Shown here: positions 2,142-55,044 of the stretch, one piece after another | Layout of the letters: every line of letters begins with the position of its first letter | Numbering within the stretch: the stretch's first letter is position 1 | Assembly: GCA_902620425.1 (NCBI GenBank) | Contig: CACNHX010000001.1 | Span: 93,471-157,470 of the forward strand | DNA: 64,000 bases | Source of the DNA: an uncultured Alphaproteobacteria bacterium | GTDB lineage: Bacteria > Pseudomonadota > Alphaproteobacteria > HIMB59 > GCA-002718135 | Direction of reading: 5' to 3' | Program-made: the position numbers and the translations under genes | The notes under the pieces: generated by a model | What the model saw: only the letters and a program-made list of their open reading frames with translations | What the model was told of the DNA's origin: nothing | Databases searched by the model: none

Positions 2142-3423
2142 AGTATTCGTATCCCATTTCTTTTAAATCTTTTGGAATATAAATGTTTCTTAAATCGAAT
2201 ATTATTTTTTCTTTTAATATTTTAGATATTTTCTCAAAATTTAATGCCCTGAATTCGTTCCATTCTGTTCCAATAATGATTGCAGACGATCCTTCACAAG
2301 CTTCGTAAGCAGAATTAAAAAAAACAAGATTAGAATTTTCTTTTTTTGAATTGCTCATTGCCTCAGGATCATAACATTGTACTTTAAATCCTTGATCAAA
2401 AAGATTTGATGCAATTTTCATTGATGTGGAATCTCTCACATCATCTGTGTTAGGTTTAAAACTTAAACCAAGAAAAGTTATAGTAGAATTATTTTTTAAT
2501 TTTGAACTAATTTTATTAGAAATTTTAATTATACGATCTTGATTAGATTTGTTCACTGCATTAATTATAGATAAATCAATATTTTTCTTTTTAGCTGTAG
2601 AAGCAAAAGCTTTAACATCTTTTGGAAAACATGAACCTCCAAATCCAGGTCCCGCATTTAAAAATTTAGAACCAATACGTTTATCTATACCCATTGCATG
2701 CGCTACTTGCTGAACATCAGCTCCTACTACTTCACATAAGTCAGCAACCTCGTTAATAAATGCAATTTTAGTTGCTAGAAAACTATTGGATGCATATTTA
2801 ATTATTTCTGAAGTTTCTATTGATGTAGCCACAATTGGGGTTTCTTTAAGAAATAAAGGTCTATAAAGTTCTTTCATTATATTTTCAGATTTTTTATTAT
2901 CTGTTCCTATTACAACTCTATCTGGTCTAATAAAATCATCAATAGCAGATCCTTCTCGTAAAAATTCTGGATTAGAAACTACATCAAAAAGTTTTTGATC
3001 AACTTTATTTGATATAATTTTTTTTACTTCGCTTGTCGTTCCAACTGGTACGGTGGATTTAGTTACAACTAAACAATATTTTTTAATACTTTCTGAAATT
3101 TCATCTGCAACTTGCCATACAAAACTTAAATCAGCTTCATCTTCTAGCCTTCTTGTAGGAGTTCCAACAGTTATAAAAAAAATATCTGTATTTTCTGAAT
3201 TATTTTTTATGCTTGAAGCAAAAGATAATAATTTTGTTTTATTAATATGCTTATCTAAAAGCTTATCCATTCCAGGTTCAAAAAATGGGCACGTACCTGA
3301 TTTGAGTTTTTCAAGACGCTCCGTATCTTTATCGATACATGTTACAGAATATCCAAATTCAGCAAAGCAAACCCCGGTTACCAAACCAACGTAACCGGTA
3401 CCAACGATTGTAAGATTCATCAT
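2125..3423 (-). CDS. ugd: UDP-glucose 6-dehydrogenase
   Basis: 432 aa. Rossmann motif IVGTGYVGLVTG and catalytic-Cys motif GFGGSCFPKD. Confidence 0.9.
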   Translation of the reverse strand: MMNLTIVGTGYVGLVTGVCFAEFGYSVTCIDKDTERLEKLKSGTCPFFEPGMDKLLDKHINKTKLLSFASSIKNNSENTDIFFITVGTPTRRLEDEADLSFVWQVADEISESIKKYCLVVTKSTVPVGTTSEVKKIISNKVDQKLFDVVSNPEFLREGSAIDDFIRPDRVVIGTDNKKSENIMKELYRPLFLKETPIVATSIETSEIIKYASNSFLATKIAFINEVADLCEVVGADVQQVAHAMGIDKRIGSKFLNAGPGFGGSCFPKDVKAFASTAKKKNIDLSIINAVNKSNQDRIIKISNKISSKLKNNSTITFLGLSFKPNTDDVRDSTSMKIASNLFDQGFKVQCYDPEAMSNSKKENSNLVFFNSAYEACEGSSAIIIGTEWNEFRALNFEKISKILKEKIIFDLRNIYIPKDLKEMGYEYYGTGK

Positions 3424-3540: not shown

Positions 3541-4551
3541 ATGTCAGAAACTAAAAAAGTTCAAACAGGGATAAACAATATATCAGACGAATGGTTTAGG
3601 GCTAATATAGATAGAAAAACTCTAAAAAAACTTTCCAAAAGATCAGATTTTGAGGGGTGGAAACATATTATTATTTATTCACTATCATTAGGAGCTCTAG
3701 GTTTATTATCGATATATACATGGCATAGCTTGTGGTTTATACCTTTATACCTTGCTTATTCTACGATGTGGGGTGGAGCTGATGCTATTTGGCATGAGTG
3801 TGGTCATGGAACTGCTTTCAGAAATAGAAGATTAAATAAATTCTTCTATAACATTGCTAGTTTTATGAATAATTTTGAACCTGTTAGATGGAAGTGGAGT
3901 CACTCTCTTCATCATAGCTATACTGCTTCAGTTGATCCTCATGACTACGAAGTTGATGGTAGTATTTTTGCTAAACATACATTTTTAAGTTTTATTTTAA
4001 ATTTTATTCCTGGAATTGGTTTTTTTACAATTCATAAATCACTTTATGTAGAAATTATTAAACATGCTTTAGGCATTAGGACTGATGTGATGAAAGATTG
4101 CATTCCAGAAGATAAAATTAATGATTGTATAAATAGCTCTAGAATTTTTGTTCTTCTATGGATTACAATAATAGCTGTCTCAATTTACTTTTCTACCTTT
4201 TTGCCAATATTTTTATTTTTAATACCAAAGTTCTTTGGCATTAATGGTATCTGGGGTGTAACACAACATATGGGTCTTAAAGAAAGCGCCAAGGATCACC
4301 GACTATCAACAAGATCAGTTAGACTTAATCCGATTTTTAGTTTTATCTATTGGAAGATGGAATACCATATTGAGCACCATATGTTTCCTATGATACCTTC
4401 ATACAATCTTCCTAAATTATATGAAATAATAAAAGATCAAATGCCAGAACCTCAAACCCTATACCAAGCTTATAAAGAAATTTTACCTGCAGTAATAAAA
4501 AAATCTAAAAACCCTGATTATTTTATACCAGTTCAGCTACCTAACAATTAG
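3541..4551 (+). CDS. Membrane di-iron fatty-acid-desaturase-family protein (paralog 1)
   Basis: 336 aa. Three His boxes (HECGH, HSLHH, HIEHH) and several hydrophobic spans. Roughly half the positions match 17653..18651 by eye. Confidence 0.75.
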   Translation: MSETKKVQTGINNISDEWFRANIDRKTLKKLSKRSDFEGWKHIIIYSLSLGALGLLSIYTWHSLWFIPLYLAYSTMWGGADAIWHECGHGTAFRNRRLNKFFYNIASFMNNFEPVRWKWSHSLHHSYTASVDPHDYEVDGSIFAKHTFLSFILNFIPGIGFFTIHKSLYVEIIKHALGIRTDVMKDCIPEDKINDCINSSRIFVLLWITIIAVSIYFSTFLPIFLFLIPKFFGINGIWGVTQHMGLKESAKDHRLSTRSVRLNPIFSFIYWKMEYHIEHHMFPMIPSYNLPKLYEIIKDQMPEPQTLYQAYKEILPAVIKKSKNPDYFIPVQLPNN

Positions 4552-4564
4552 ATATTAATTTCAT

Positions 4565-5740
4565 TTACTTAGAGCTCAAAAAAGTACCGTAAATAAATTC
4601 ATAAAAATCCACATTTAGTTTTCTATCACCATTTAAAACGTGAGTCATTAATGTAGCAAATAAATTATTTTTTATATCTACCAAAAAATAAGTTGAAGCT
4701 GCTCCAGCCCATCCAAATTCTTCAAATTCTCCAATATTGTTATTTTTTTCTGGAAATAACATTGTCCTAAAACCTAAACCCCAACCATATGGCTCAAGAC
4801 CATTATCACCTTCTTCTGAAAGTCCATCTATCCCTTCTATTTTCATAGGTAAAAGATTTTCTGGTAAAGTATTTTTAATAATTAAATTTAAAGTTTTTTC
4901 ACTAATTATTTGAACTCCAGAATCTGATTTTCCGTTTAAAAGCATCTTACAAAATTTGTTATAATCTTTCATTGTAGAATACAGACCATGGCCTCCTCGC
5001 GCATAGGTTGCACTATTTATAGGATAATCTTGCGGATTTTTTTCTTCAATTAACTTTTTACTTTGTGAATCATATTGATACAATGTCATCAACCTCTGAG
5101 ATTTTTTATCATCTAAAGAAAATCCAGTATCTTGCATATCAAGAGGGTCAAAAATATTATCTTTTAGAATATTTTGAAGTTTCTTATTGAGAACCACCTC
5201 TAATATTCTTGCTAAAACATCTATACAAACAGAATATCGCCATTCTGTCATAGGCTGACTGTACAAAGGAAATTTAGATAATAATTTTATTTCATCAGAT
5301 AATAATCTTTCATTAAATAATTTTTGTTTCGTATACTCAGCAGCAAGCGCATCAGGAAGAAATCCGTAACTAAAGCCCGCAGTATGTTGTAAAAGATTTT
5401 TTATTGTTGGTTTTATTTTTAAGTCTTCAATATCACTTATTGATTCTTTGTTATTTTTCATAACTTTTAGATTTTGAAATTCAGTTAAATATTTATCAAT
5501 TGGATCATCTAAATTTATTAATTTTTTTTCTACAAGTTGCATTGTGACTATTGCTATAATAGGCTTAGTCATAGAAAATATTCTGTAAATAGTATCGTCT
5601 TCTATTTCTTTGAGAGTTTCAATATTTGAAAAACCAAGTTTACCAGATAAGTATTTTCCATCTTTATAAATAGACCACTGTATTCCTGGAAAAGTCTTTT
5701 GGTCTAAATAATGTTGGAAAATTTTATTTAATTCTTCCAT
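4565..5740 (-). CDS. Serine hydrolase of the beta-lactamase/PBP (class C-like) family
   Basis: 391 aa. S-x-x-K nucleophile motif FSMTKP. No obvious signal peptide. Confidence 0.7.
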   Translation of the reverse strand: MEELNKIFQHYLDQKTFPGIQWSIYKDGKYLSGKLGFSNIETLKEIEDDTIYRIFSMTKPIIAIVTMQLVEKKLINLDDPIDKYLTEFQNLKVMKNNKESISDIEDLKIKPTIKNLLQHTAGFSYGFLPDALAAEYTKQKLFNERLLSDEIKLLSKFPLYSQPMTEWRYSVCIDVLARILEVVLNKKLQNILKDNIFDPLDMQDTGFSLDDKKSQRLMTLYQYDSQSKKLIEEKNPQDYPINSATYARGGHGLYSTMKDYNKFCKMLLNGKSDSGVQIISEKTLNLIIKNTLPENLLPMKIEGIDGLSEEGDNGLEPYGWGLGFRTMLFPEKNNNIGEFEEFGWAGAASTYFLVDIKNNLFATLMTHVLNGDRKLNVDFYEFIYGTFLSSK

Positions 5741-5794
5741 ATTTAAAAATTACCACAAAATTAGGACTAATTAAATGTTTAAGTTTAATATTAA

Positions 5795-5842
5795 AAATAC
5801 TTTCCAGACTATTTTATTCCTGTTCAAGTTCCAAATAATTAA
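5795..5842 (+). pseudogene. Relic of the last ~12 codons plus stop of a desaturase-family gene
   Basis: Translates K Y F P D Y F I P V Q V P N N stop. The C-terminus of 3541..4551 is N P D Y F I P V Q L P N N stop. A TAA at 5792-5794 closes the frame upstream. About 11 of the 39 aligned nt differ from the intact copy, mostly at synonymous positions. Confidence 0.8.
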
Positions 5843-5888
5843 ACTATACTTGACACATCTTCAGCTTTAGTTTTATCTATACCTTTAT

Positions 5889-7325
5889 ATGGAGTTAAGA
5901 AATTTTATTGATGGTAAATTCATTGATTCACTCTCAAAGAAAAATATTCCTGTATTAAATCCGGCTAATCAAAAAATTGTTGGTAATATTGATGAAGCTT
6001 TGGATGAAGAAATAGATTTAGCTTTTCAGGCTGCAAAAAAAGCATTCGATAAAAGAATTTTGGTCGATATGGATGCAAAAGATAAATCAAATATGATGAG
6101 AGCCATTGCACAAAAATTAAGAGAAAGAAAAGAAGAAGGTGGTAAACTTTTAAGCCAAGAAAATGGTAAAACGATTAAACAATGTATCGATGAATTCAAA
6201 GGTGCTGCTGATACCTTTGATTTTTATGCAGGATTAACAGACAAGATAGAAAATAAATTAATTCCATCTGGTAAAGATACTTTAAACTATGTTGTTTTGG
6301 AACCCTTTGGAGTTGCGCTTCAAATTGTACCTTGGAATTATCCTGTTTCTATATTTTCTGGAATGGTTGCGCAGAATTGGATAGTAGGAAATACCATAGT
6401 TATAAAACCTCCTGAACTTTGTCCTATATCGTCTAATTTTTATGGTCAAATTTTTGAGGATGTTGGTGTTCCAAAAGGAATTATAAATATTCTTCACGGT
6501 TATGGAGAAACAACTGGTCGAAAATTAGTCCAACATCCAGGAAGTGATTATATTGTATTTACTGGATCACCTGAAGTTGCTTCAGAAATTCTTAAAGAAA
6601 CAGCAGATAGAATTATACCTACTCATTTTGAATTAGGAGGAAAGTCTGCAGCAATAATCTATCCCGATGCTGACATTGATAAAGCTGTAGACAGTACAGT
6701 TAAAGGAATTTTTAAACCAAATGCAGGTCAAATATGTGTAGCAATGTCTAGAGTAATAGTTCATCCAAAAATTAAAGATGAGTATATGACAAAGCTTGTT
6801 GCAAAAACCCAAAAATTAAAAATAGGTGCAGGCGACGAAGATGGAACGGAAGTAACACCTTTAATCTCAACTGATCAAATGCAAAGGGTTTCAAATTATG
6901 TAAAATCTGGTGTACAATCAGGTGCTACATTAACAATAGGCGGGGATAAAGCTGAGAGAGTCGATGGTAATTTTTACCAACCAACTATTTTTGATAATGT
7001 TAAAGTTGATGCAACAATTGCTCAGGAAGAAATATTTGGCCCTGTAACATCAATATTTGATTTTGAAGATGAAGAAGAAGCAATAAGTATAGCTAATTCA
7101 ACAAAATACGGTCTTGCTTCCGGAGTATTTACTTCAGATGAGCAAAAAGCAAAATGGACTGCTGATAGAATTCAGGCTGGGATAATTTGGCAAAACGATT
7201 GGTTTGTTGATGGAAATAATCTTCCAGGTGGTGGTTACAAAAGATCAGGTTATGGAAGAGATGGTGGGGTAGATGGGGTGTATAGTCACGGACAGACTAA
7301 AAGGATTAGTAAAAGACTCTACTAG
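5889..7325 (+). CDS. NAD(P)-dependent aldehyde dehydrogenase
   Basis: 478 aa. Motifs FELGGKSA, catalytic Cys in AGQICVAMSR, and EEIFGPV. Paralog of 55129..56562. Confidence 0.9.
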   Translation: MELRNFIDGKFIDSLSKKNIPVLNPANQKIVGNIDEALDEEIDLAFQAAKKAFDKRILVDMDAKDKSNMMRAIAQKLRERKEEGGKLLSQENGKTIKQCIDEFKGAADTFDFYAGLTDKIENKLIPSGKDTLNYVVLEPFGVALQIVPWNYPVSIFSGMVAQNWIVGNTIVIKPPELCPISSNFYGQIFEDVGVPKGIINILHGYGETTGRKLVQHPGSDYIVFTGSPEVASEILKETADRIIPTHFELGGKSAAIIYPDADIDKAVDSTVKGIFKPNAGQICVAMSRVIVHPKIKDEYMTKLVAKTQKLKIGAGDEDGTEVTPLISTDQMQRVSNYVKSGVQSGATLTIGGDKAERVDGNFYQPTIFDNVKVDATIAQEEIFGPVTSIFDFEDEEEAISIANSTKYGLASGVFTSDEQKAKWTADRIQAGIIWQNDWFVDGNNLPGGGYKRSGYGRDGGVDGVYSHGQTKRISKRLY

Positions 7326-12002: not shown

Positions 12003-13223
12003 CTATCCTTTAATTCCTCCTGCAGTTAAGCCTCCAGTTAAGTATCTTTCAGCCCATAAAAAAACTGCTATTACAGGTACGGTTGCAATAACTGAACCAG
12101 CCATCAAATGCTGTCTTGGCACCTCTGTTCCATCTAATTGTTCTAAACCTCTTGGAAGTGTAAATATAGCTGGAGTATCTAAAAACATATATGCAAATAA
12201 ATATTCATTCCACGCTACCATAAAAATAAATAGAGAAACTGAAGCTATTGCTGGAAGTGATAAAGGTAAAGTAATTTTTAATATAACCCCAGTTCTTGAT
12301 AACCCATCAACTAAACCAGCTTCTTCCAGTTCTTGTGGTATTGTTTGAAAATATCCCTGTAACATATAAATTGCCACGGGAATAGTAACAGCAGGATAAA
12401 CAATTATTAGTCCAAATAAAGAATCTCTTAAGTTTATAAAAGTAAAAAATGAATACAAAGGGATTAACAATGTAATCATAGGAATTAAATAAATTAATAA
12501 TATTGAGTTAATCATTAATAGTTTTCCTGGAAAATTAAATCTTGCAACTGCATAAGCACCCGGTATTGCAAAAATTAAAGCAATAAAAATTGAAGATAAA
12601 GAAACTATTAATGAATTGAGTAAGTAATAACCAAATCCCCAATCAGTAAATAGTTCGATATAGCTTCTAAACATATTTAATCCTCGTGTAATATCAATTG
12701 ATAGATCAAGAGGATTAAGAATTAATAACTGATGAGTTTTTAAGCTCATCAAAATCATTACATAAAATGGAAATAATACAATTGTTAAGAAGAAAGTAAA
12801 ACCAAAACCTTTTAAAACCCTAAGAAATAAAATTTCTAAAAATAATCTATTAAAAGACATTTTATTGATTCCAGATAGACAAATAATATTGCCTATTAAT
12901 ATTATAAATGATTGGATTAATAAAAATAATATCTGCAAAAAACTATTTTCATTTATATTTAAACCATAAGGAGAAAGGCCTGTAAAAATCAAGATCAATA
13001 TAAAAGTTAAAATAAATAAACTAATATAAATTTGTAGGCTTTTTCTATCATAAAAAACAATCAATAATGTGATTATTGAAGATGAAATAATGTAAGAAAA
13101 ATAATTAAATTGAATTGTACTACCAATAAGAAGAATAAAAAATACTCCTAAAACAATATTACTGATTAACCCCCAAAATGAACTAATTATTAAAGAAATT
13201 AAAATTTTTTGACTATTGTTCAT
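12003..13223 (-). CDS. CUT1 sugar ABC permease (MalG-type) with an extra N-terminal multi-helix extension
   Basis: 406 aa. The C-terminal ~280 aa is a standard MalG-type TMD (EAA loop ELEEAGLVDGLSRTGVILKITLP, C-terminus GGLTAGGIKG). The first ~125 aa add about 4 hydrophobic helices. Confidence 0.8.
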   Translation of the reverse strand: MNNSQKILISLIISSFWGLISNIVLGVFFILLIGSTIQFNYFSYIISSSIITLLIVFYDRKSLQIYISLFILTFILILIFTGLSPYGLNINENSFLQILFLLIQSFIILIGNIICLSGINKMSFNRLFLEILFLRVLKGFGFTFFLTIVLFPFYVMILMSLKTHQLLILNPLDLSIDITRGLNMFRSYIELFTDWGFGYYLLNSLIVSLSSIFIALIFAIPGAYAVARFNFPGKLLMINSILLIYLIPMITLLIPLYSFFTFINLRDSLFGLIIVYPAVTIPVAIYMLQGYFQTIPQELEEAGLVDGLSRTGVILKITLPLSLPAIASVSLFIFMVAWNEYLFAYMFLDTPAIFTLPRGLEQLDGTEVPRQHLMAGSVIATVPVIAVFLWAERYLTGGLTAGGIKG

Positions 13224-13225
13224 TC

Positions 13226-14500
13226 TTATTCTTTCGGTGAAAATCTTATTATAAATATTGCAGCAAAAACTAATATTAAGAAAACTAATACTGCATTTGC
13301 CGCTCCAGTTCCTAAATTACCAATATTAAAACCTGTTTCATAAACATCTACAGTTAAAGTTTTAGTTCCAGCGGCACCTCCAGTTAATAAAAAAATGTCA
13401 TCAAATTTATTAAATGTCCAAATAAATCTTAGAAGAAACAAAACAAATAACACTCCTAGAATTAAGGGCCAAGTAATACTTCTAAATTTTTGCAAAGGTG
13501 TAGCACCATCAATTTCAGCAGCTTCAAAAAGTTCTTTTGGAACAGATTGTAATCTTGCTAAGATAAAAATCATCGCTAAAGGAAAATATCTCCAAGACTC
13601 AAATAAAATAACAAATGATAAAGCAACTGGGAAACTAAATTCAAAACCTAGGAAATTAATTGTCATATCTCTTACTTGTAAGAAACTAATAGGTTCATTT
13701 AAAATTTGTAATTGCGTAAGAATTCCATTGATTGTTCCAAAAAAAGGATCAGTTAAAATTTTCCAAGTAATAGTAACGGCTATAATTGGTGCAATATATG
13801 GAAATAAAAAAATACCTCGTATTATACCTCTGCCAATAAAGGTGGTCATAAGTAGTTGTGCAGCTAAAATACCAAGTGTTAACGATCCAATTGCAGAGAA
13901 TAAAGAATACGCAAAACTTATTCTAATTGTTTTCCAAAAGTTTGGTGAAGTAAATATTTCTTCAAAATTTTTTAATTTTAATTCAAGGTTTAATAATCTA
14001 TTTTCTGATTTTCCTTTAACAATTGGTGAAGTATCTTTTGGATTTTCCTGACTAATAAAATAATCATTCTCTGCGATTGTTTCAAATTTTATTTTCTTTT
14101 TTTCTTTTGGTTTAAAATCACCTAATTGACAGTTTATTATATTATCTGAGATAGAACAGTTATTAGGTAATTCTTTAATTACTAAACCTTTAGGTAAAAT
14201 ATCTTTGAAGTTTACATTTTTTATATTTGAACTTTTTGAAAAATTATTAAATCGATACTCTACTTTAGAAATATCTCCTTTTGTTTTTGGTTTTTTTTGA
14301 AATTTTTCGGTTACTTTTATTTCAGCTATTCTTAAATCAGATACAGTAACATCCTTAAAACTTATCCAAAAATTAGCAATAAGTGGAAATAATACAATAG
14401 CCATAACAATGGCCACAGTTGGGACAAGCATTGTATAGGCTTGTACTACTCCTTGTTTTTCAATGGGCCCCATTCTTTTTTTATAAGAACTGGAGCCCAT
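13226..14500 (-). CDS. CUT1 sugar ABC permease (MalF-type) with a ~130-aa hydrophilic insertion after TM1
   Basis: 424 aa. EAA loop ELFEAAEIDGATPLQKFRSITWP. The insertion spans roughly residues 55-185. The start could instead be the second Met (nt 14473). Confidence 0.8.
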   Translation of the reverse strand: MGSSSYKKRMGPIEKQGVVQAYTMLVPTVAIVMAIVLFPLIANFWISFKDVTVSDLRIAEIKVTEKFQKKPKTKGDISKVEYRFNNFSKSSNIKNVNFKDILPKGLVIKELPNNCSISDNIINCQLGDFKPKEKKKIKFETIAENDYFISQENPKDTSPIVKGKSENRLLNLELKLKNFEEIFTSPNFWKTIRISFAYSLFSAIGSLTLGILAAQLLMTTFIGRGIIRGIFLFPYIAPIIAVTITWKILTDPFFGTINGILTQLQILNEPISFLQVRDMTINFLGFEFSFPVALSFVILFESWRYFPLAMIFILARLQSVPKELFEAAEIDGATPLQKFRSITWPLILGVLFVLFLLRFIWTFNKFDDIFLLTGGAAGTKTLTVDVYETGFNIGNLGTGAANAVLVFLILVFAAIFIIRFSPKE

Positions 14501-14519
14501 TAAGATTAATTAATATAAA

Positions 14520-15860
14520 TTACAGTTTTGCTGCTTCTGAATTTAGCATATCAACAGTATCTTCCGCAGAACGATCGCCGTTAATATATTCCATCATCAG
14601 CCTATTCATTAATCCACTATTTACTAACTTAGCCGCAACAGGAAGTTGGCCTTCTTTAGCACCCCATCTTGTACCAACAGCTAATCCATTAATAAGTGAT
14701 TCAATAATTTCTTCTGAATAAATTTGGTTAATTGGAATTTTTCTATCTACTCCAATTGGCAAATTACCCCATTCTTCAATAAAGATTTTTGAACCAGCAT
14801 TAGGCCCTGGTCTAATAGGGAAACTACCTTCAGGAGCCATTCCTAACCAAGTAACATACTCTTCGTTCATAACATATTCAATGAATGCTGCTGCTTCATC
14901 AGTATTTGCATCAACAGTTACACCAAAGTTGTGAACTTCAACCCATGTTCCACCATCTGGATTAGAAGGACCAGCCATTCCTACTATAACATTAGTATCT
15001 TGTGCTAATGCTAGAGATTGTGGATTGTCATCTACCATAATTGGAACATTGTCTCTTGTACCTGCAATATCATCTAAAAGATATGAAGCCCAAAAAGTTA
15101 ATGGAACAACATCACTTGCGTAAAAGTCTCTACCATTTTGCCAGTGATGAATACCCTCAGGTGACATCCCAACTAAAGCTTTGTAAGTTTCTAACATTTC
15201 GATAGTTTTTTTCTTATCAAAGTTAATAGATCCATCTTCCTTTACTGGGTGTAATCCATTAGCAATAGCAAATGTTTCCATCCATTGACTCATAAAACCA
15301 GCTGCAACATCAGTTGGAACAATAGCTCCGTAACGATTTGGTGGATTATGAAGAGCTTTAGCTCCAGCTAAAATATTTGCATAATTAGTTGGTGTAGCTA
15401 AACCATTATCATTATAATAGCTCATACGATAGTAAGTAGCATTTGGCCATGCACCTGAAGGTACAGAAGCATATACTCCTGGCTCAACCTCTGACATAGC
15501 TAATACACCTTTTGCACTATATGTATCAATTCCTAATGAATTAACAATTTCTGTTGCAGCATCTGAATCGAATACTCCTTCATCATAAGCCCAAGCACAA
15601 AAATTAACGCATGCAGCATTAAAAATTACGTCAGGTAAACTGTTAGCAGCAAAAGCAGCAGACGCCTTTTCAATTAATTCGTCTTCTTCCTGAGGAACTA
15701 ATTTAACTTCAATTCCCGTTTTTGCTGTAAATCTTGCAATTAATTCTTCTTGAATTTGCATTCTTCCAGGTTGTGTTTCAGTAGTCCATAATGTCATACT
15801 GAAAACAGAATTAGAAAATAACAAAATAGAAGAAATAAAAGTAAATAGTATTTTTTTCAT
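14520..15860 (-). CDS. Family-1 extracellular solute-binding protein (CUT1 sugar ABC)
   Basis: 446 aa. Signal peptide MKKILFTFISSILLFSNSVFS. AGGAGG SD (complement of 15868-15873) lies 7 nt before the ATG. Confidence 0.8.
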   Translation of the reverse strand: MKKILFTFISSILLFSNSVFSMTLWTTETQPGRMQIQEELIARFTAKTGIEVKLVPQEEDELIEKASAAFAANSLPDVIFNAACVNFCAWAYDEGVFDSDAATEIVNSLGIDTYSAKGVLAMSEVEPGVYASVPSGAWPNATYYRMSYYNDNGLATPTNYANILAGAKALHNPPNRYGAIVPTDVAAGFMSQWMETFAIANGLHPVKEDGSINFDKKKTIEMLETYKALVGMSPEGIHHWQNGRDFYASDVVPLTFWASYLLDDIAGTRDNVPIMVDDNPQSLALAQDTNVIVGMAGPSNPDGGTWVEVHNFGVTVDANTDEAAAFIEYVMNEEYVTWLGMAPEGSFPIRPGPNAGSKIFIEEWGNLPIGVDRKIPINQIYSEEIIESLINGLAVGTRWGAKEGQLPVAAKLVNSGLMNRLMMEYINGDRSAEDTVDMLNSEAAKL

Positions 15861-15941
15861 ACTTAACCCTCCTAAAATAAGGAAAATTAATCACAAAAAA
15901 TACTAAATTAAAATACTAATTTTTAAGGATATTTAATTATA

Positions 15942-16766
15942 TTAAGTAAGTAATTTAGCGCTTTTTTTAAATTTTTGAAGCTCACTATTATTTATCTTTA
16001 CTATATTTCGAGATGTGACAAATTTAGTTGATTTAGCCATTTTATTAAATTTATTCACAGCCTTAACTTTTTCTCTGTAAATCTTGTCTCTTAATTTATA
16101 AATTTTAGCCAAACTAAAAGCGTGTCTTGGTATTTCTTCATTCTCACCACAAATATCATCCATAAACAAATAATTTACATCACCGTAGTTTCCCGATCCT
16201 AAAGATACTGTTATTAAATTCACATTTTCAGAAATAAATTTTAGTGTTTGATCTGCAATCACCTCTGCTTCAACAGCAAATGCTCCAGCACTTTCCATCG
16301 TTTTAAATTCTTCAAATAATTTTAAAGCCTCCGATGCAGTTTTTCCTACTCCTCTAAGTCCGCCAATCCAAATTGATTTTCTTGGCACCAAGCCTAAATG
16401 AGCCATTACTGGAATTGACTCTTTTGATAAATATTCAACTACTCTTGGTGATCTTGCCGTATAGATTGCATCAGCACCATTATTTAGAGCTTCTAAAGAT
16501 GCCTTAAGAATTTCATCATTTGTTTTAAATTCAGTGAATGGTATGGCGACCGTAATAAAATTATTTTTTGCAATTGATCTCACTTTTTTAATCGAAGCAA
16601 GACCTGTAATTAATAAATCGACTTTAGCGTCAACAGCAATATTTGCCTCCTCTTCATTTTTTACATTTATTTGGGAAAGTTTTTTTTTACCTTTATTATC
16701 AAAAAGATCTTTGATGGTATAATTTCTATAACTAAGATTTCCTGCAAAGTTATAAATTTTTTTCAT
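15942..16766 (-). CDS. PanB-like (ketopantoate hydroxymethyltransferase fold) protein, divergent
   Basis: 274 aa. PVMAHLGLVPRKSIWIGGLRGVGK and AGAFAVEAEVI align to the PanB GHLGLTPQS...GGYKVQGR and LECVP regions. The PanB GDSLG, DxPF and KxEGG motifs are not recognisable. Confidence 0.5.
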   Translation of the reverse strand: MKKIYNFAGNLSYRNYTIKDLFDNKGKKKLSQINVKNEEEANIAVDAKVDLLITGLASIKKVRSIAKNNFITVAIPFTEFKTNDEILKASLEALNNGADAIYTARSPRVVEYLSKESIPVMAHLGLVPRKSIWIGGLRGVGKTASEALKLFEEFKTMESAGAFAVEAEVIADQTLKFISENVNLITVSLGSGNYGDVNYLFMDDICGENEEIPRHAFSLAKIYKLRDKIYREKVKAVNKFNKMAKSTKFVTSRNIVKINNSELQKFKKSAKLLT

Positions 16767-16768
16767 CT

Positions 16769-17491
16769 TTACATCAAATATGCTCTTCCTCTTTGAATAC
16801 CATTGAAAGGATCAATGATATTTTCAGAAGAGTATTGAGATAAATATGCTTTGCGATTTTTTTTTGTAATATTGGCACTAGATGAATGAGGCGTTAAGCT
16901 TGAAAAGATTATCAATGTTCCTGCACTAACACAAAGCTGAATTGCATTTTTTTCATTAACTTTTATTCCTAAATCTTTTGATTTATTTTGCCATTTATGT
17001 GATTTTGCATTTTTTGTTTTTTTTAAATTTGTAGGAATAATACTCAAAGCTCCATTTTTTTCATTTGTATCGGTTAGAGCAAGCCAAACAGATATATAAG
17101 GTTTATGTCTGAAATGAATATAACCTGAATCTTGGTGCCAACTGAATGAGCTTGGTGTATTTGGACTCTTATTTACCAGTTGTTCATTAAATAAAAAAAT
17201 TTTTTTTCCTAAAAGCTTTGAGACGATATTTTTTATAAACTTTCCCTTTGCGTATGCATTTATGTGTGGATAATATTCACACTGGTTACCAAAAAATATC
17301 TTTCCATTTTTACTAATATCACCATGCTTTTTTCTTTCATTATTATTTGATTGTTTTCTATTAACACCTTTTTTAAAATCATTTATCATTTGATCTGCAT
17401 TTTTATTAAGTTTAATTAAAGTCGACTTAGGAACAATGTTTGGTAAAACGAGATATCCATTTAGTTCAAAATGTGTTTTATCTATATTCAT
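16769..17491 (-). CDS. PhyH-family Fe(II)/2-oxoglutarate dioxygenase
   Basis: 240 aa. N-terminal FELNGYLVLPN, facial-triad H-x-D in SFSWHQDSGY, distal His in LTPHSSSAN followed by Arg (NRKAY). Confidence 0.7.
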   Translation of the reverse strand: MNIDKTHFELNGYLVLPNIVPKSTLIKLNKNADQMINDFKKGVNRKQSNNNERKKHGDISKNGKIFFGNQCEYYPHINAYAKGKFIKNIVSKLLGKKIFLFNEQLVNKSPNTPSSFSWHQDSGYIHFRHKPYISVWLALTDTNEKNGALSIIPTNLKKTKNAKSHKWQNKSKDLGIKVNEKNAIQLCVSAGTLIIFSSLTPHSSSANITKKNRKAYLSQYSSENIIDPFNGIQRGRAYLM

Positions 17492-17652: not shown

Positions 17653-18651
17653 ATGGTGGATAAACTTGATAATGTCGATGACAAGTGGTTTAGGGCTGAA
17701 TTAAGTAAAAAAGATCTAAAACAATTATCAAAAAAAAGTGATTTAAAAGGTTTACAACACGTAAGTCTATATTTCATTCTTTTATTTTTCTTTGGTTACA
17801 TGTCAGTAACAACATGGGGGACTTGGTGGACAGTCTTATGGCTATGGCTTTATGGTGTTCTTTTTTATTCTAGTAATCCAATCTGGCATGAGTGCGGTCA
17901 TAGAACGGCGTTTAAGTCGAAGTATTTAAATGAAATTTTTTACCAAATTGGCTCTTTTATGACTGACTTTGAACCAACAAGGTGGACATGGAGTCATTTC
18001 AGACATCATAGCAATACGTCCTCAGTGAGTGATCCTCATGATTTCGAAGCTGCTTTATTCCATCAATATCCAAGTTTAAGAAGTTTTCTATTTAGCTTTA
18101 TCCCATTCTACGAGTTAATATATTTTAAACATTCATTTAAGTATGAAATAATAAAACATGCATTAGGATTTACAACTCCTGTAATGAGAGATTGTATACC
18201 TCAAAATGAAATAGCAAAATGCCGTCTCATTTCTAGAATACATGTATTATTGTGGGTTTCATCTTTTGCTTTATCTTTCTATCTAATGAATCCTCTTCCT
18301 GCACTATTAATTTTCTTCCCTAGATACTGGGGTAACATCATTAATATATTTAATATGACGCAGCACTTAGGACTTCCAGAAGATGTAAAGGATCATAGAT
18401 ACACAACAAGATCAGTACGATTTAATCCTATATTTAGCTTTTTGTATTGGCATATGGAATATCACGTTGAACATCATATGTTCCCTTCTGTTCCCTCTTA
18501 TAATTTACCAAAACTAAGTAATTTAATAAAAGATCAACTACCTAAAGCTAACACTAGCTTATATGATGCTTATAAAGAAATAATTCCTGCCATAATTAAA
18601 CAACATAAAGATAATAATTACTTTATTCAAAAAGAAGTACCAAATACATAA
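17653..18651 (+). CDS. Membrane di-iron fatty-acid-desaturase-family protein (paralog 2)
   Basis: 332 aa. His boxes HECGH, HFRHH and HVEHH. Shares the N-terminal WFRA..L..LSK.SD motif with paralog 1. Confidence 0.75.
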   Translation: MVDKLDNVDDKWFRAELSKKDLKQLSKKSDLKGLQHVSLYFILLFFFGYMSVTTWGTWWTVLWLWLYGVLFYSSNPIWHECGHRTAFKSKYLNEIFYQIGSFMTDFEPTRWTWSHFRHHSNTSSVSDPHDFEAALFHQYPSLRSFLFSFIPFYELIYFKHSFKYEIIKHALGFTTPVMRDCIPQNEIAKCRLISRIHVLLWVSSFALSFYLMNPLPALLIFFPRYWGNIINIFNMTQHLGLPEDVKDHRYTTRSVRFNPIFSFLYWHMEYHVEHHMFPSVPSYNLPKLSNLIKDQLPKANTSLYDAYKEIIPAIIKQHKDNNYFIQKEVPNT

Positions 18652-27051: not shown

Positions 27052-27066
27052 TAGAATCGTATTGAA

Positions 27067-27104
27067 TATTGCCCCTAATATAAGGGGCAATACATCCCTT
27101 TTTT
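27067..27104 (+). terminator. Rho-independent terminator after the MalK-type gene
   Basis: 10-bp stem tattgcccct (27067-27076) paired with aggggcaata (27083-27092), loop aatata, T6 run at 27099-27104. Confidence 0.75.
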
Positions 27105-27145
27105 AAAAATTTTCAATAAATATCATAAATTTAAACTAAAATAAT

Positions 27146-27214
27146 GATGGGCAGAGGGTTCATATTATTTCCTCCTATAAGAAGTATTCCTCTTATAAAA
27201 CTTTTCTGCCCACC
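27146..27214 (-). other. Structured 3' region downstream of glpD containing an orphan SD plus a 10-codon sORF
   Basis: On the minus-strand RNA there is a 10-bp outer stem (27205-27214 with 27146-27155, one G-U pair) and a 7-bp inner hairpin (27191-27197 with 27176-27182). AGGAGG (complement of 27171-27176) and an ATG (27163..27161) sit in the loop. A U-rich tail follows. Confidence 0.4.
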
Positions 27215-27246
27215 AAATTTGAAAAGTTATTTAAGAGGGATACCAA

Positions 27247-53685: not shown

Positions 53686-55044
53686 TTAGCCTCGTTCGAA
53701 GTATCTTCGTAACTGCCAATCATTAACTGAACCATCATAATCTTTTTGTTCCCATTCAGCAGCATGGATATAATGATCTAGTACATCTTGTGGAAATATC
53801 TCTTTTAAAAAATTAGATTTTTTAGCAAGTTGAATTGCTTCGTTAAGTGTTTTAGGAACTTCATTTACTTTTTTCTCATAAATATTCCCTGAATAAGGTT
53901 TATCTAATTTAAGTTTGTTTTTAATACCGTATAAACCAGCACCAACTAAAGCAGCAAAAGAAAGATAAGGATTAACATCAGCTCCTGGGACTCGACATTC
54001 AATTCTTATGGATGATCCATGACCAGCTAGTCTAAACCCAGCAGTACGATTATCAATACCCCAAACAGATTTTGTAGGAGCAAATGATCCATCTTGAAAT
54101 CTTTTATAAGAATTAATATTTGGTGCTAAAAAAATTGATATATCTGGCAATAATTTAATTTGTCCTGCAAGATAACTTTTAAAAATATCAGACATGCCAT
54201 ATTTATCCTTAGGGTTATAAAAAATATTTTTCTTTGTTTTCTTATCGAATAAAGAGTTATGAATATGACATGAACTTCCACAAACATCTTTGTTATATTT
54301 AGCCATAAAGGTGACAGCTTTGTTATGTTTATAAGCAATTTCTTTTGTCGCATTTTTAATTAAAATATGATTGTCAGCCATGTTTAATGCATCAGAAAAA
54401 ACAACATTGATTTCTTCTTGTCCTGGAGCTGCTTCACCCTTTGAACATTCTACATAAATCCCACTATCTAGAAGAGAATTTCTTAATTCCTGCATCACAT
54501 CCTCTTCTTTCGTAGTTTGGAAAATCATATAATCTTCAATATACCAAGAAGACTCTTTAAGTTTTGTATAATTATTATTATGAATTTCTTCATAAGTTTG
54601 ATTAAAAAGAAAAAATTCTAATTCTGAGCCAACCATAGATTGAAATCCCATTTTGTCTGCCTTAGCTAAAACATCTTTTAATATCTGTCTTGTTGAATGA
54701 ATAAGTGGTTTTTTTCCTGAATGGTCTAAACAATCACATATTACTATAGCTGTTTTATTTAACCAATTTGCTACCTTTATCGTTTTGAGATCTGGAATTA
54801 CAGTCATATCACCATAACCCGTTTCCCATGAAGAAGATTTATATCCGGGTACAGTAAACATATCCATATCGACGGTATAAAGATAATCGCACATATGCGT
54901 TTCTTTATAGACATAATCAATAAAAGCTTTTCCAGTAACTCTTTTACCATTTAGTCTACCTTGCATATCTGATACGCAAACTAAAACTGTATCTATTTCT
55001 TTTTTTGTTATTAGTTTTTTTAACTGATTAAATGTAATACTCAT
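53686..55044 (-). CDS. Glutamine-synthetase-family glutamate--amine ligase (PuuA-like)
   Basis: 452 aa. GSELEFFLF, KGEAAPGQEEINV and NSYKRF. Confidence 0.8.
   Translation of the reverse strand: MSITFNQLKKLITKKEIDTVLVCVSDMQGRLNGKRVTGKAFIDYVYKETHMCDYLYTVDMDMFTVPGYKSSSWETGYGDMTVIPDLKTIKVANWLNKTAIVICDCLDHSGKKPLIHSTRQILKDVLAKADKMGFQSMVGSELEFFLFNQTYEEIHNNNYTKLKESSWYIEDYMIFQTTKEEDVMQELRNSLLDSGIYVECSKGEAAPGQEEINVVFSDALNMADNHILIKNATKEIAYKHNKAVTFMAKYNKDVCGSSCHIHNSLFDKKTKKNIFYNPKDKYGMSDIFKSYLAGQIKLLPDISIFLAPNINSYKRFQDGSFAPTKSVWGIDNRTAGFRLAGHGSSIRIECRVPGADVNPYLSFAALVGAGLYGIKNKLKLDKPYSGNIYEKKVNEVPKTLNEAIQLAKKSNFLKEIFPQDVLDHYIHAAEWEQKDYDGSVNDWQLRRYFERG

Follow-up and report, generated by a model that had tools for sequence, protein, structure and literature searches.

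Some integrative elements target the 3′ end of a gene, carry a replacement end, and give rise to attL/attR duplications at tRNA or protein genes. SAR11 genomes contain almost no mobile elements, and their populations differ at dozens of small regions in fixed positions; the entry of genes into these variable positions is usually inferred and not observed. SAR11 islands of one or two genes are exchanged by homologous recombination without mobile elements (PMC11796062), and in that work the footprints left by cassette insertion are partial repeats of tRNAs, with no mention of remnants or illegitimate joints. Homology-facilitated illegitimate recombination (HFIR) is documented in S. pneumoniae, Acinetobacter baylyi, Pseudomonas stutzeri and E. 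coli conjugation (PMC3240628). Typical events involve 3–10 bp of microhomology, a recipient deletion of similar size and inserts that average ~1 kb, and three of four E. coli events also had no homology at the joint (PMC3240628). In Rhs, CDI and T6SS effector loci, displacement of C-terminal coding sequence leaves orphaned 3′ ends, and an illegitimate route has been proposed (PMC5361080). The locus described here keeps a displaced desaturase gene end as a short relic; it adds one more case to a type of scar already known and does not represent a novel class of element.

The desaturase relic and its source

The window, by which we mean the whole 64-kb stretch of DNA that was analyzed, is AT-rich (~30% G+C), ORFs of at least 120 codons cover ~97% of it, and scans along its whole length found neither a tRNA gene nor any Rfam family that reached the gathering threshold. 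Its closest relatives are single-cell genomes of marine Pelagibacterales (SAR11). The genes of interest follow the order phosphoglucomutase (−), UDP-glucose dehydrogenase (−), desaturase (+), a beta-lactamase-family serine hydrolase that we call BLA for short (−), aldehyde dehydrogenase (ALDH, +) and a sugar ABC transporter operon (Table 1). Amino-acid identity of ALDH across relatives is 94–100%. The best NCBIfam match of BLA is the methyl acetate hydrolase AcmB, far below that model's cut-off; its close relatives (≥88% identity) fall into three small clusters, with 224, 1 and 11 members, and the next homologues are ~55% identical. A scan of a genome collection with the desaturase, with genes mapped by tblastn, gave 80 loci, and BLA lies between desaturase and ALDH in 4 of them (L001–L004). 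BLA is an accessory gene that most relatives do not carry.

Table 1. Features of the desaturase–ALDH locus, in window coordinates
Feature	Position	Strand	Remarks
Desaturase nt 1–971, resident-type part	3541..4511	+	PF00487 match; mismatches to L005 given in the text
Substitute desaturase 3′ end, nt 972–1011, NPDYFIPVQLPNN, TAG stop	4512..4551	+	Foreign-type; travels with BLA
13-nt spacer between the convergent desaturase and BLA stops	4552..4564	.	Within the inserted block; every window-type and tandem-type locus has it
Beta-lactamase-family serine hydrolase (BLA), 391 aa, PF00144	4565..5740	−	Pfam E = 5e-50
63-nt BLA upstream region, ends ...AAAAATACTTT	5741..5803	−	Closes the inserted block on the right; conserved wherever BLA is present
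Relic: displaced last 12 codons and TAA stop, resident desaturase nt 973–1011	5804..5842	+	Non-coding here
Native desaturase–ALDH spacer, 46 nt	5843..5888	+	1 mismatch to L005
Aldehyde dehydrogenase, first gene of the ALDH–sugar ABC transporter operon	5889..7325	+	Pfam; right homologous flank

The intact desaturase (3541..4551, 336 aa, PF00487) has the C-terminal end ...SKNPDYFIPVQLPNN*. In the 148-nt gap between BLA and ALDH, positions 5795..5842 translate as KYFPDYFIPVQVPNN*, of which the relic proper encodes PDYFIPVQVPNN and the stop. Anchored on the stop codons, the relic and 4513..4551 are identical at 29 of 39 nt and match at 11 of 12 residues plus the stop. The first-pass annotation had reported this C-terminal homology, and it is real; the annotation's estimate of about 11 nucleotide differences in 39 comes to 10 by our count (11 of 40 if nt 972 of the gene is included), and its 47-nt gap to ALDH measures 46 nt from relic to ATG. 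Nine of the ten differences fall at codon position 3, and the tenth is the first base of a Leu/Val codon. A repeat search of the window pairs relic and gene end as direct repeat D2, 1291 nt apart; the longest identical run within both copies is 8 nt, TATTTTAT, in AT-rich DNA. The best 13-residue match scores 12 of 13, and none of 300 shuffled versions of the 148-nt gap scored above 8; when all 58 window proteins were compared by tblastn with all intergenic DNA, the relic was the sole strong match (E = 1.7e-5). No convincing homology extends upstream of 5803, where all that the two sequences have in common is an AT-rich TAAAAAT 7-mer offset by 4 nt; a crossover or deletion at this 7-mer would remove ACTT, which is present. 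The relic does not qualify as an ORF: it lacks a start codon, and an in-frame stop lies two codons ahead of the F. Rfam, tRNA, promoter and terminator scans in and around the relic returned nothing. It is not expected to have a function of its own or any physiological consequence.

The gap that holds the relic is the third-longest intergenic region of the window. The longest, 27052..27246 (195 nt), has a weak translated similarity to the protein of 53686..55044 (−) that is probably noise (45% over 20 residues, E = 0.003). Just downstream of the locus, 12003..17491 forms a second presence/absence polymorphism. In most relatives a Gfo/Idh/MocA gene leads directly to a paralogous desaturase (17665..18648 in the window); the window has between them a minus-strand block of ~5.5 kb with two ABC permeases, a binding protein and two more genes. 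The first gene of this block after the Gfo/Idh/MocA gene is present in the window, L005, L007, L010, L014 and L018, and L006, L012 and L017 have only a homologue of 16769..17491 there. Conversion from this paralogue was considered as an origin of the repeat and rejected: the second desaturase is 51% identical to the first, ends in KDNNYFIQKEVPNT*, and is the source of neither gene end.

Relatives without BLA identify the relic. In 45 single-cell genomes (L005–L050, leaving out L028, whose ALDH start was not matched), the desaturase stop is followed after 43–47 nt by the ALDH ATG, an arrangement that we call R-type (45 genomes or more). The relic and its 46-nt spacer differ from the true gene end and spacer of L005 at 2 of 85 nt, and because of this near-identity the relic is the resident desaturase gene end, still in its native place before the ALDH spacer. 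The first-pass annotation had proposed that a resident desaturase once ended just before the ALDH operon and left its last codons there, and had suggested looking among relatives for BLA-less loci in which the desaturase abuts ALDH. The 45 genomes supply that arrangement, and the match to L005 assigns the codons to a resident allele. The relic behaves as a gene remnant in each respect, with an intact gene at the same position in relatives, significant homology, and a sequence that cannot be translated in its present context. Within the spacer, a motif CTTGACA...CTTTAGTTTTAT is almost invariant across the 45 genomes (L005–L050) while flanking bases vary; it is probably the promoter of the ALDH/ABC operon together with a regulator site, and a simple sigma-70 promoter scan made no call there.

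The intact gene is a mosaic. Its end, ...CAG CTA CCT AAC AAT TAG, occurs in BLA-bearing loci only (L001–L004, L086–88, L109–118, L120–125) and in none of the BLA-less relatives, and it resembles the gene ends of a diverged BLA-bearing lineage, termed D-type below, with which it has CAG CTA CC in common. Compared with L005, nt 1–971 have 34 mismatches (3.5%), none of them in nt 908–971, and nt 972–1011 have 11 in 40 (27.5%); the jump falls exactly at nt 972 (Fisher p = 3e-7). Compared with the D-type allele of L081, nt 972–1011 have 6 mismatches in 40, and nt 1–971 differ from full-length BLA-lineage alleles at 107–159 of 971 positions (11–20%). Diagnostic sites change type between nt 964 and 996, and the relic starts at nt 972/973. 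To judge from these comparisons, only the last 40 nt of the intact desaturase are of foreign type and nt 1–971 are of resident type. The differences between the substitute end and the relic, being mostly at third positions, indicate that the substitute end evolved in another lineage, where it closed a real gene. With respect to the BLA-less allele, the window carries a clean insertion of 1,291–1,292 nt (4512..5802/5803) that consists of the substitute gene end, the 13-nt spacer, BLA and 63 nt of BLA upstream DNA, within which the BLA promoter presumably lies.

These results uphold the core of the earlier reading, that BLA arrived by recombination and that the relic is the resident end, and the confinement of the TAG-type end to BLA-bearing loci, together with its likeness to the BLA lineage, agrees with the suggestion that BLA and the present desaturase end arrived together. 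The further claim that the incoming allele replaced most of the resident gene is not supported by the mismatch values for nt 1–971. The history is further constrained by relic-free and tandem-desaturase loci, described next, to which the first-pass annotation had no access.

Coexisting configurations and the polarity of the joint

Further BLA loci were collected by a metagenome scan with BLA (5 loci) and by exact-protein look-ups of BLA cluster members, and were sorted by junction. All 47 loci with a close BLA carry it between desaturase and ALDH, and none was found elsewhere. In the 23 D-type loci (L081, L082, L089–L108 and L119) the desaturase is diverged over its full length and has its own end, such as NPDYFIPVQLPNN; BLA is 88–95% identical to that of the window, the ALDH allele is diverged, and there is no relic. 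Their junction (carets mark junctions here and below) is ...AAAAATACTTT^TTAAACTTAGCTTGACAG..., and all 23 conform to ACTT[T/A]T[T/A]AAACTTA[G/A]CTTGACAG. The 12 window-type loci (the window, L001, L003, L004, L086–88, L120, L121 and L123–125) consist of a desaturase with the substitute end, DES_a, followed by BLA, ...ACTTT^CCAGAC of the relic, the spacer and ALDH. Their joint, ...AAAAATACTTT^CCNGAYTAYTTT, recurs in 12 independent loci, namely the window, 3 single-cell genomes and 8 metagenome contigs. After ACTTT, D-type loci continue with TTAAACT... and window-type loci with CCAGAC....

The fourth configuration, the tandem type, is represented by 10 metagenome contigs (L109–L118; the arrangement occupies 21..4279 of L109, reverse-complemented). 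Here DES_a and a 98% identical BLA are followed by a second complete desaturase, DES_b, an L005-like spacer and ALDH. DES_b has 337 aa and is 82% identical to the first desaturase, and ALDH shows 100% amino-acid identity. Between BLA and the DES_b leader 23 nt of the D-type spacer are kept, and the joint, ...ACTTT TTAAACTTAGCTTGACAGATTTT^GTTTTTATTAATTATAAAAAAAT-ATG (in full, GATTTTGTTTTTATTAATT), runs from the D-type ALDH spacer (+23) to position −28 of the desaturase leader; it is a separate illegitimate joint. These contigs are not considered chimeric assemblies, because they come from several samples and two assembly sources and have one identical joint, and the two desaturases are a natural gene duplication by recombination between alleles. 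A Campbell-type event would predict DES_b to be a gene of the donor lineage, but its nearest relatives are the BLA-less L026–L028 (3.9–4.6% mismatch) and not D-type. Nor does the tandem joint lie on a border where homology collapses, as both upstream regions stay alignable across −28.

Two smaller sets of observations concern the flanks of BLA. In L081 (reverse-complemented, ~2695..2720 and 3950..3960) a 5-nt direct repeat, TTAAA, brackets the whole BLA block in the contexts AAT-TAA-A^... and ...ACTTT-TTAAA^CT, with equivalent sites in L082 and L119; this older lineage also retains the former desaturase stop codon on the right of the block. The repeat could be a trace left by the first insertion event, or a coincidence in an AT-rich sequence. 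The relic itself is polymorphic among window-type loci, with CCA, CCG or CCT at the Pro codon and one GTT/ATT site, and the same sites vary in functional gene ends; this suggests that the relic–ALDH flank is still recombining with BLA-less alleles.

Neighbor-joining trees of BLA were built from nucleotides, with midpoint rooting, and from proteins, with an outgroup root. In both, L082, L119, L099 and the L081 group, all of them D-type, branch at the base as a paraphyletic assemblage, and window-type, tandem-type and L002 sequences form one tight derived clade of 98–100% identity, with the tandem type nested inside the window types. Because the D-type lineages are basal, BLA-bearing loci ancestrally had the junction without a relic, and the joint that bears one is a young derivative. 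Two loci, L002 and L122, combine DES_a with a D-type junction. The BLA of L002 (8034..9200) is a mosaic, L081-like from nt 1 to ~650 and window-like from ~680 to 1176, and the BLAs of L120 and L121 have D-like tracts around nt 380–640. Homologous recombination inside BLA is frequent, which makes gene trees within that clade unreliable.

Because the tandem type carries DES_a, BLA and the D-type spacer, a BLA-plus parent with DES_a, a window-like BLA and the D-type spacer must once have existed. L002 was considered as this direct parent and rejected, its mosaic BLA marking it as a secondary recombinant, and L122 has the same outer structure. The direct parent is not sampled intact, and its look-alikes L002 and L122 are themselves recombinant, BLA in both being L081-like over its 5′ half.

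The joint is best seen by dividing the locus into segments: L (desaturase nt 1–971), H1 (substitute end, BLA and 63 nt upstream of BLA), H2 (the resident end, starting at nt 972) and Rr (the spacer beginning TTAAACT, and ALDH). The BLA-plus parent is L-H1-Rr, the BLA-less parent L-H2-Rr, and the window L-H1-H2-Rr, in which the L–H1 and H2–Rr junctions are parental and H1–H2, between 5802/5803 and 5804, is the sole new one. Within ~1 nt it connects the last BLA-specific base (...ACTTT), defined by the point at which homology between D-type and R-type resumes with TTAAACT, to the first base that differs between DES_a and the L005-like allele. This border-to-border position presumes a recipient that is L005-like at nt 972–978; some BLA-less alleles have CCT or GAT there, which widens the interval for the left crossover to nt 964–996. 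Microhomology at the joint is at most 1 nt (a single T at 5803), and no resident base was lost, nt 1–971 and nt 972–1011 both being present. A clean product, with the D-type junction on a BLA-less-type spacer, would read ...ACTTT^TTAAACTATACTTGACAC.

Proposed history and alternatives

We consider it moderately probable that the resident gene end was displaced by a block carried in by recombination, with an illegitimate join of borders on one side. The starting point would be a D-type locus, with BLA between a diverged desaturase and ALDH and no relic. BLA-less alleles would then have replaced the D-type desaturase up to ~nt 971 by homologous recombination, and the last 40 nt, at the edge of homology beside BLA, would have stayed linked to BLA, giving the hybrid DES_a; retention of that end is easily accounted for as an edge effect, since homologous tracts from BLA-less donors can reach only to the diverged stretch beside BLA. 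In a later recombination between BLA-plus and BLA-less alleles, both unlike segments would have been retained in tandem and neither replaced, through one homologous crossover and one illegitimate join at the heterology borders. The product would be desaturase nt 1–971, the foreign end with BLA and its 63-nt upstream region, the resident end, the spacer and ALDH. The comparisons above establish what the relic is and where it came from, the four configurations, the ancestral state of the relic-free junction and the place of the joint; the order of these events and the molecular mechanism of the join are what we infer.

The window type could instead have arisen from the tandem form by one internal deletion of ~1.02 kb. 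Such a deletion would remove the spacer fragment, the DES_b leader and DES_b nt 1–971 in a single event, loss of a redundant copy would be favored in a streamlined genome, and the precursor is a form that exists, in 10 contigs from several samples and assemblers. Tandem and window have in common DES_a (16 mismatches in 1011 nt) and BLA (98%); both have the TTACCAC variant in the BLA upstream region, and in both the gene end, spacer and ALDH are L005-like. A deletion would, however, have to place both of its ends on heterology borders within ~1 nt, for which we roughly estimate a chance of at most 1e-3, and no relic of intermediate length was seen in the 47 BLA-bearing loci. The allele of the right flank is uninformative as a discriminating test and not diagnostic, because L005 (25 mismatches in 976 nt to the window) is as close to the window as the tandem form (24). 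Overall we regard this origin as unlikely, though less so than the explanations that follow.

A second alternative invokes a 1.29-kb circle, made up of the substitute end, BLA and the BLA promoter, that integrated by a single crossover at the 40-bp desaturase end, either Campbell-type or through a recombinase acting in trans, so that the two gene ends would be attL and attR. It accounts well for an insert between direct repeats with no target DNA lost and the gene restored, both repeats contain an identical 8-nt stretch, TATTTTAT, as a possible core, and single crossovers of re-circularized DNA give such duplications in E. coli (PMC3240628). Against it, the block contains no recombinase gene and no terminal inverted repeats, BLA occupies this very site in the older lineage with no repeat beside it, close BLA homologues occur at this locus only, the third-position differences are those of a real gene end and not of an attachment-site mimic, and 40 bp at 74% identity is a poor RecA substrate. 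In a scan of viral contigs neither the circle junction ...ACTTT^CCCTGATTATTTTATACC (ACTTT^CCCTGAT) nor the window joint was found. We judge an origin from a circle very unlikely.

We are strongly inclined to doubt that the joint ACTTT^CCAGAC dates from the original BLA insertion. Under such an ancient duplication the D-type would later have lost a 35-nt relic, and the relic of the window would look young since BLA-less alleles keep overwriting it. The D-type does keep T-TAA-ACT, the old stop codon, straight after ACTTT, a 2-nt TT microhomology could explain deletion of the relic, and the relic variants (CCA/CCG/CCT, GTT/ATT) mirror functional ends, which fits import from BLA-less alleles. Yet all deep BLA branches (L082, L119, L099 and the L081 group) are without the relic, which is confined to one BLA clade of 98–100% identity, and several identical deletions, or one deletion followed by spread, would be needed.

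That the relic only resembles the desaturase end by chance, or that it has a function, whether as a small ORF, a regulatory RNA, a terminator or a site for a regulator, is scarcely credible: it lies at ~−47 to −85 from the ALDH start beside TTGACA and could add promoter context, but shuffles and tblastn exclude chance, and function is opposed by the missing start codon, the in-frame stops, the lack of any Rfam, terminator or promoter call, the D-type loci that run the same operon without a relic, and the identity of its sequence as a BLA-less gene end. A transposon or IS finds no footing either, as there is no transposase, the block ends have no inverted repeats beyond AT-rich chance pairs, and the repeat, 39 nt long and 26% diverged, is not the short identical target duplication of such elements. 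As for a site-specific element, no recombinase lies in or next to the block, whose neighbors are UDP-glucose dehydrogenase, desaturase and ALDH.

Comparison with known systems

The displacement that we favor leaves a locus in which four states coexist: empty, with a clean insert of old date, with an insert plus a 39-nt relic, and with an insert plus a complete second desaturase. Two different illegitimate joints are preserved in it, which makes it a datable example. Homologous recombination appears to shuttle a one-gene island, to which occasional illegitimate joins may add DNA, even a gene duplication, and the last 40 nt of a core gene remain linked to the island as the rest is homogenized. 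Three findings give the locus some value for SAR11 population genomics, namely an older lineage free of the relic, a form with tandem desaturases and a joint that runs from border to border. The end of a flanking gene, repeated on the far side of an accessory gene, is a search image for which pangenomes can be scanned.

Two wider readings are quite unlikely. The block may be a minimal mobile cassette that passes from one SAR11 genome to another, either circular or as a fragment, and inserts through the 40-bp homology of the gene end, in which case partial repeats of gene ends would be a general and hitherto unnoticed signature of gene gain in streamlined genomes without mobile elements and mismatch repair. 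Alternatively, border joining, with both alleles kept in tandem, may be a recurrent pathway that seeds the small islands of SAR11 and paralogue pairs such as the tandem desaturases.

Among described processes, the window joint resembles HFIR. In both there is a homologous anchor, one invisible and one new joint, and an insert of comparable scale (~1.3 kb here), and the locus has one homologous junction on the left (nt 964–996) and one non-homologous junction on the right (ACTTT^CCAGAC). In contrast to typical HFIR, nothing was deleted, microhomology is at most 1 nt, the joint lies on heterology borders, and the donor would be a diverged allele of the same locus and not unrelated DNA. The likeness to integrative elements lies in a gene end directly repeated on both sides with the gene left intact, but here an integrase is missing, no identical stretch exceeds 8 nt, and an older lineage has the same cargo at the same site without repeats.

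As in the SAR11 islands, the variable region consists of one gene in a fixed position between core genes, alternatives coexist, and mobile genes are absent; the footprint differs in that it is a partial repeat of the end of a protein-coding gene. With the Rhs, CDI and T6SS loci it has in common that an incoming module brings a new 3′ end and the old end persists downstream. Those systems, however, diversify toxin tips with immunity genes under selection, whereas here the two ends encode nearly the same 12 residues, the relic is only 39 nt long with no selection expected on it, and the cargo is a metabolic accessory gene.
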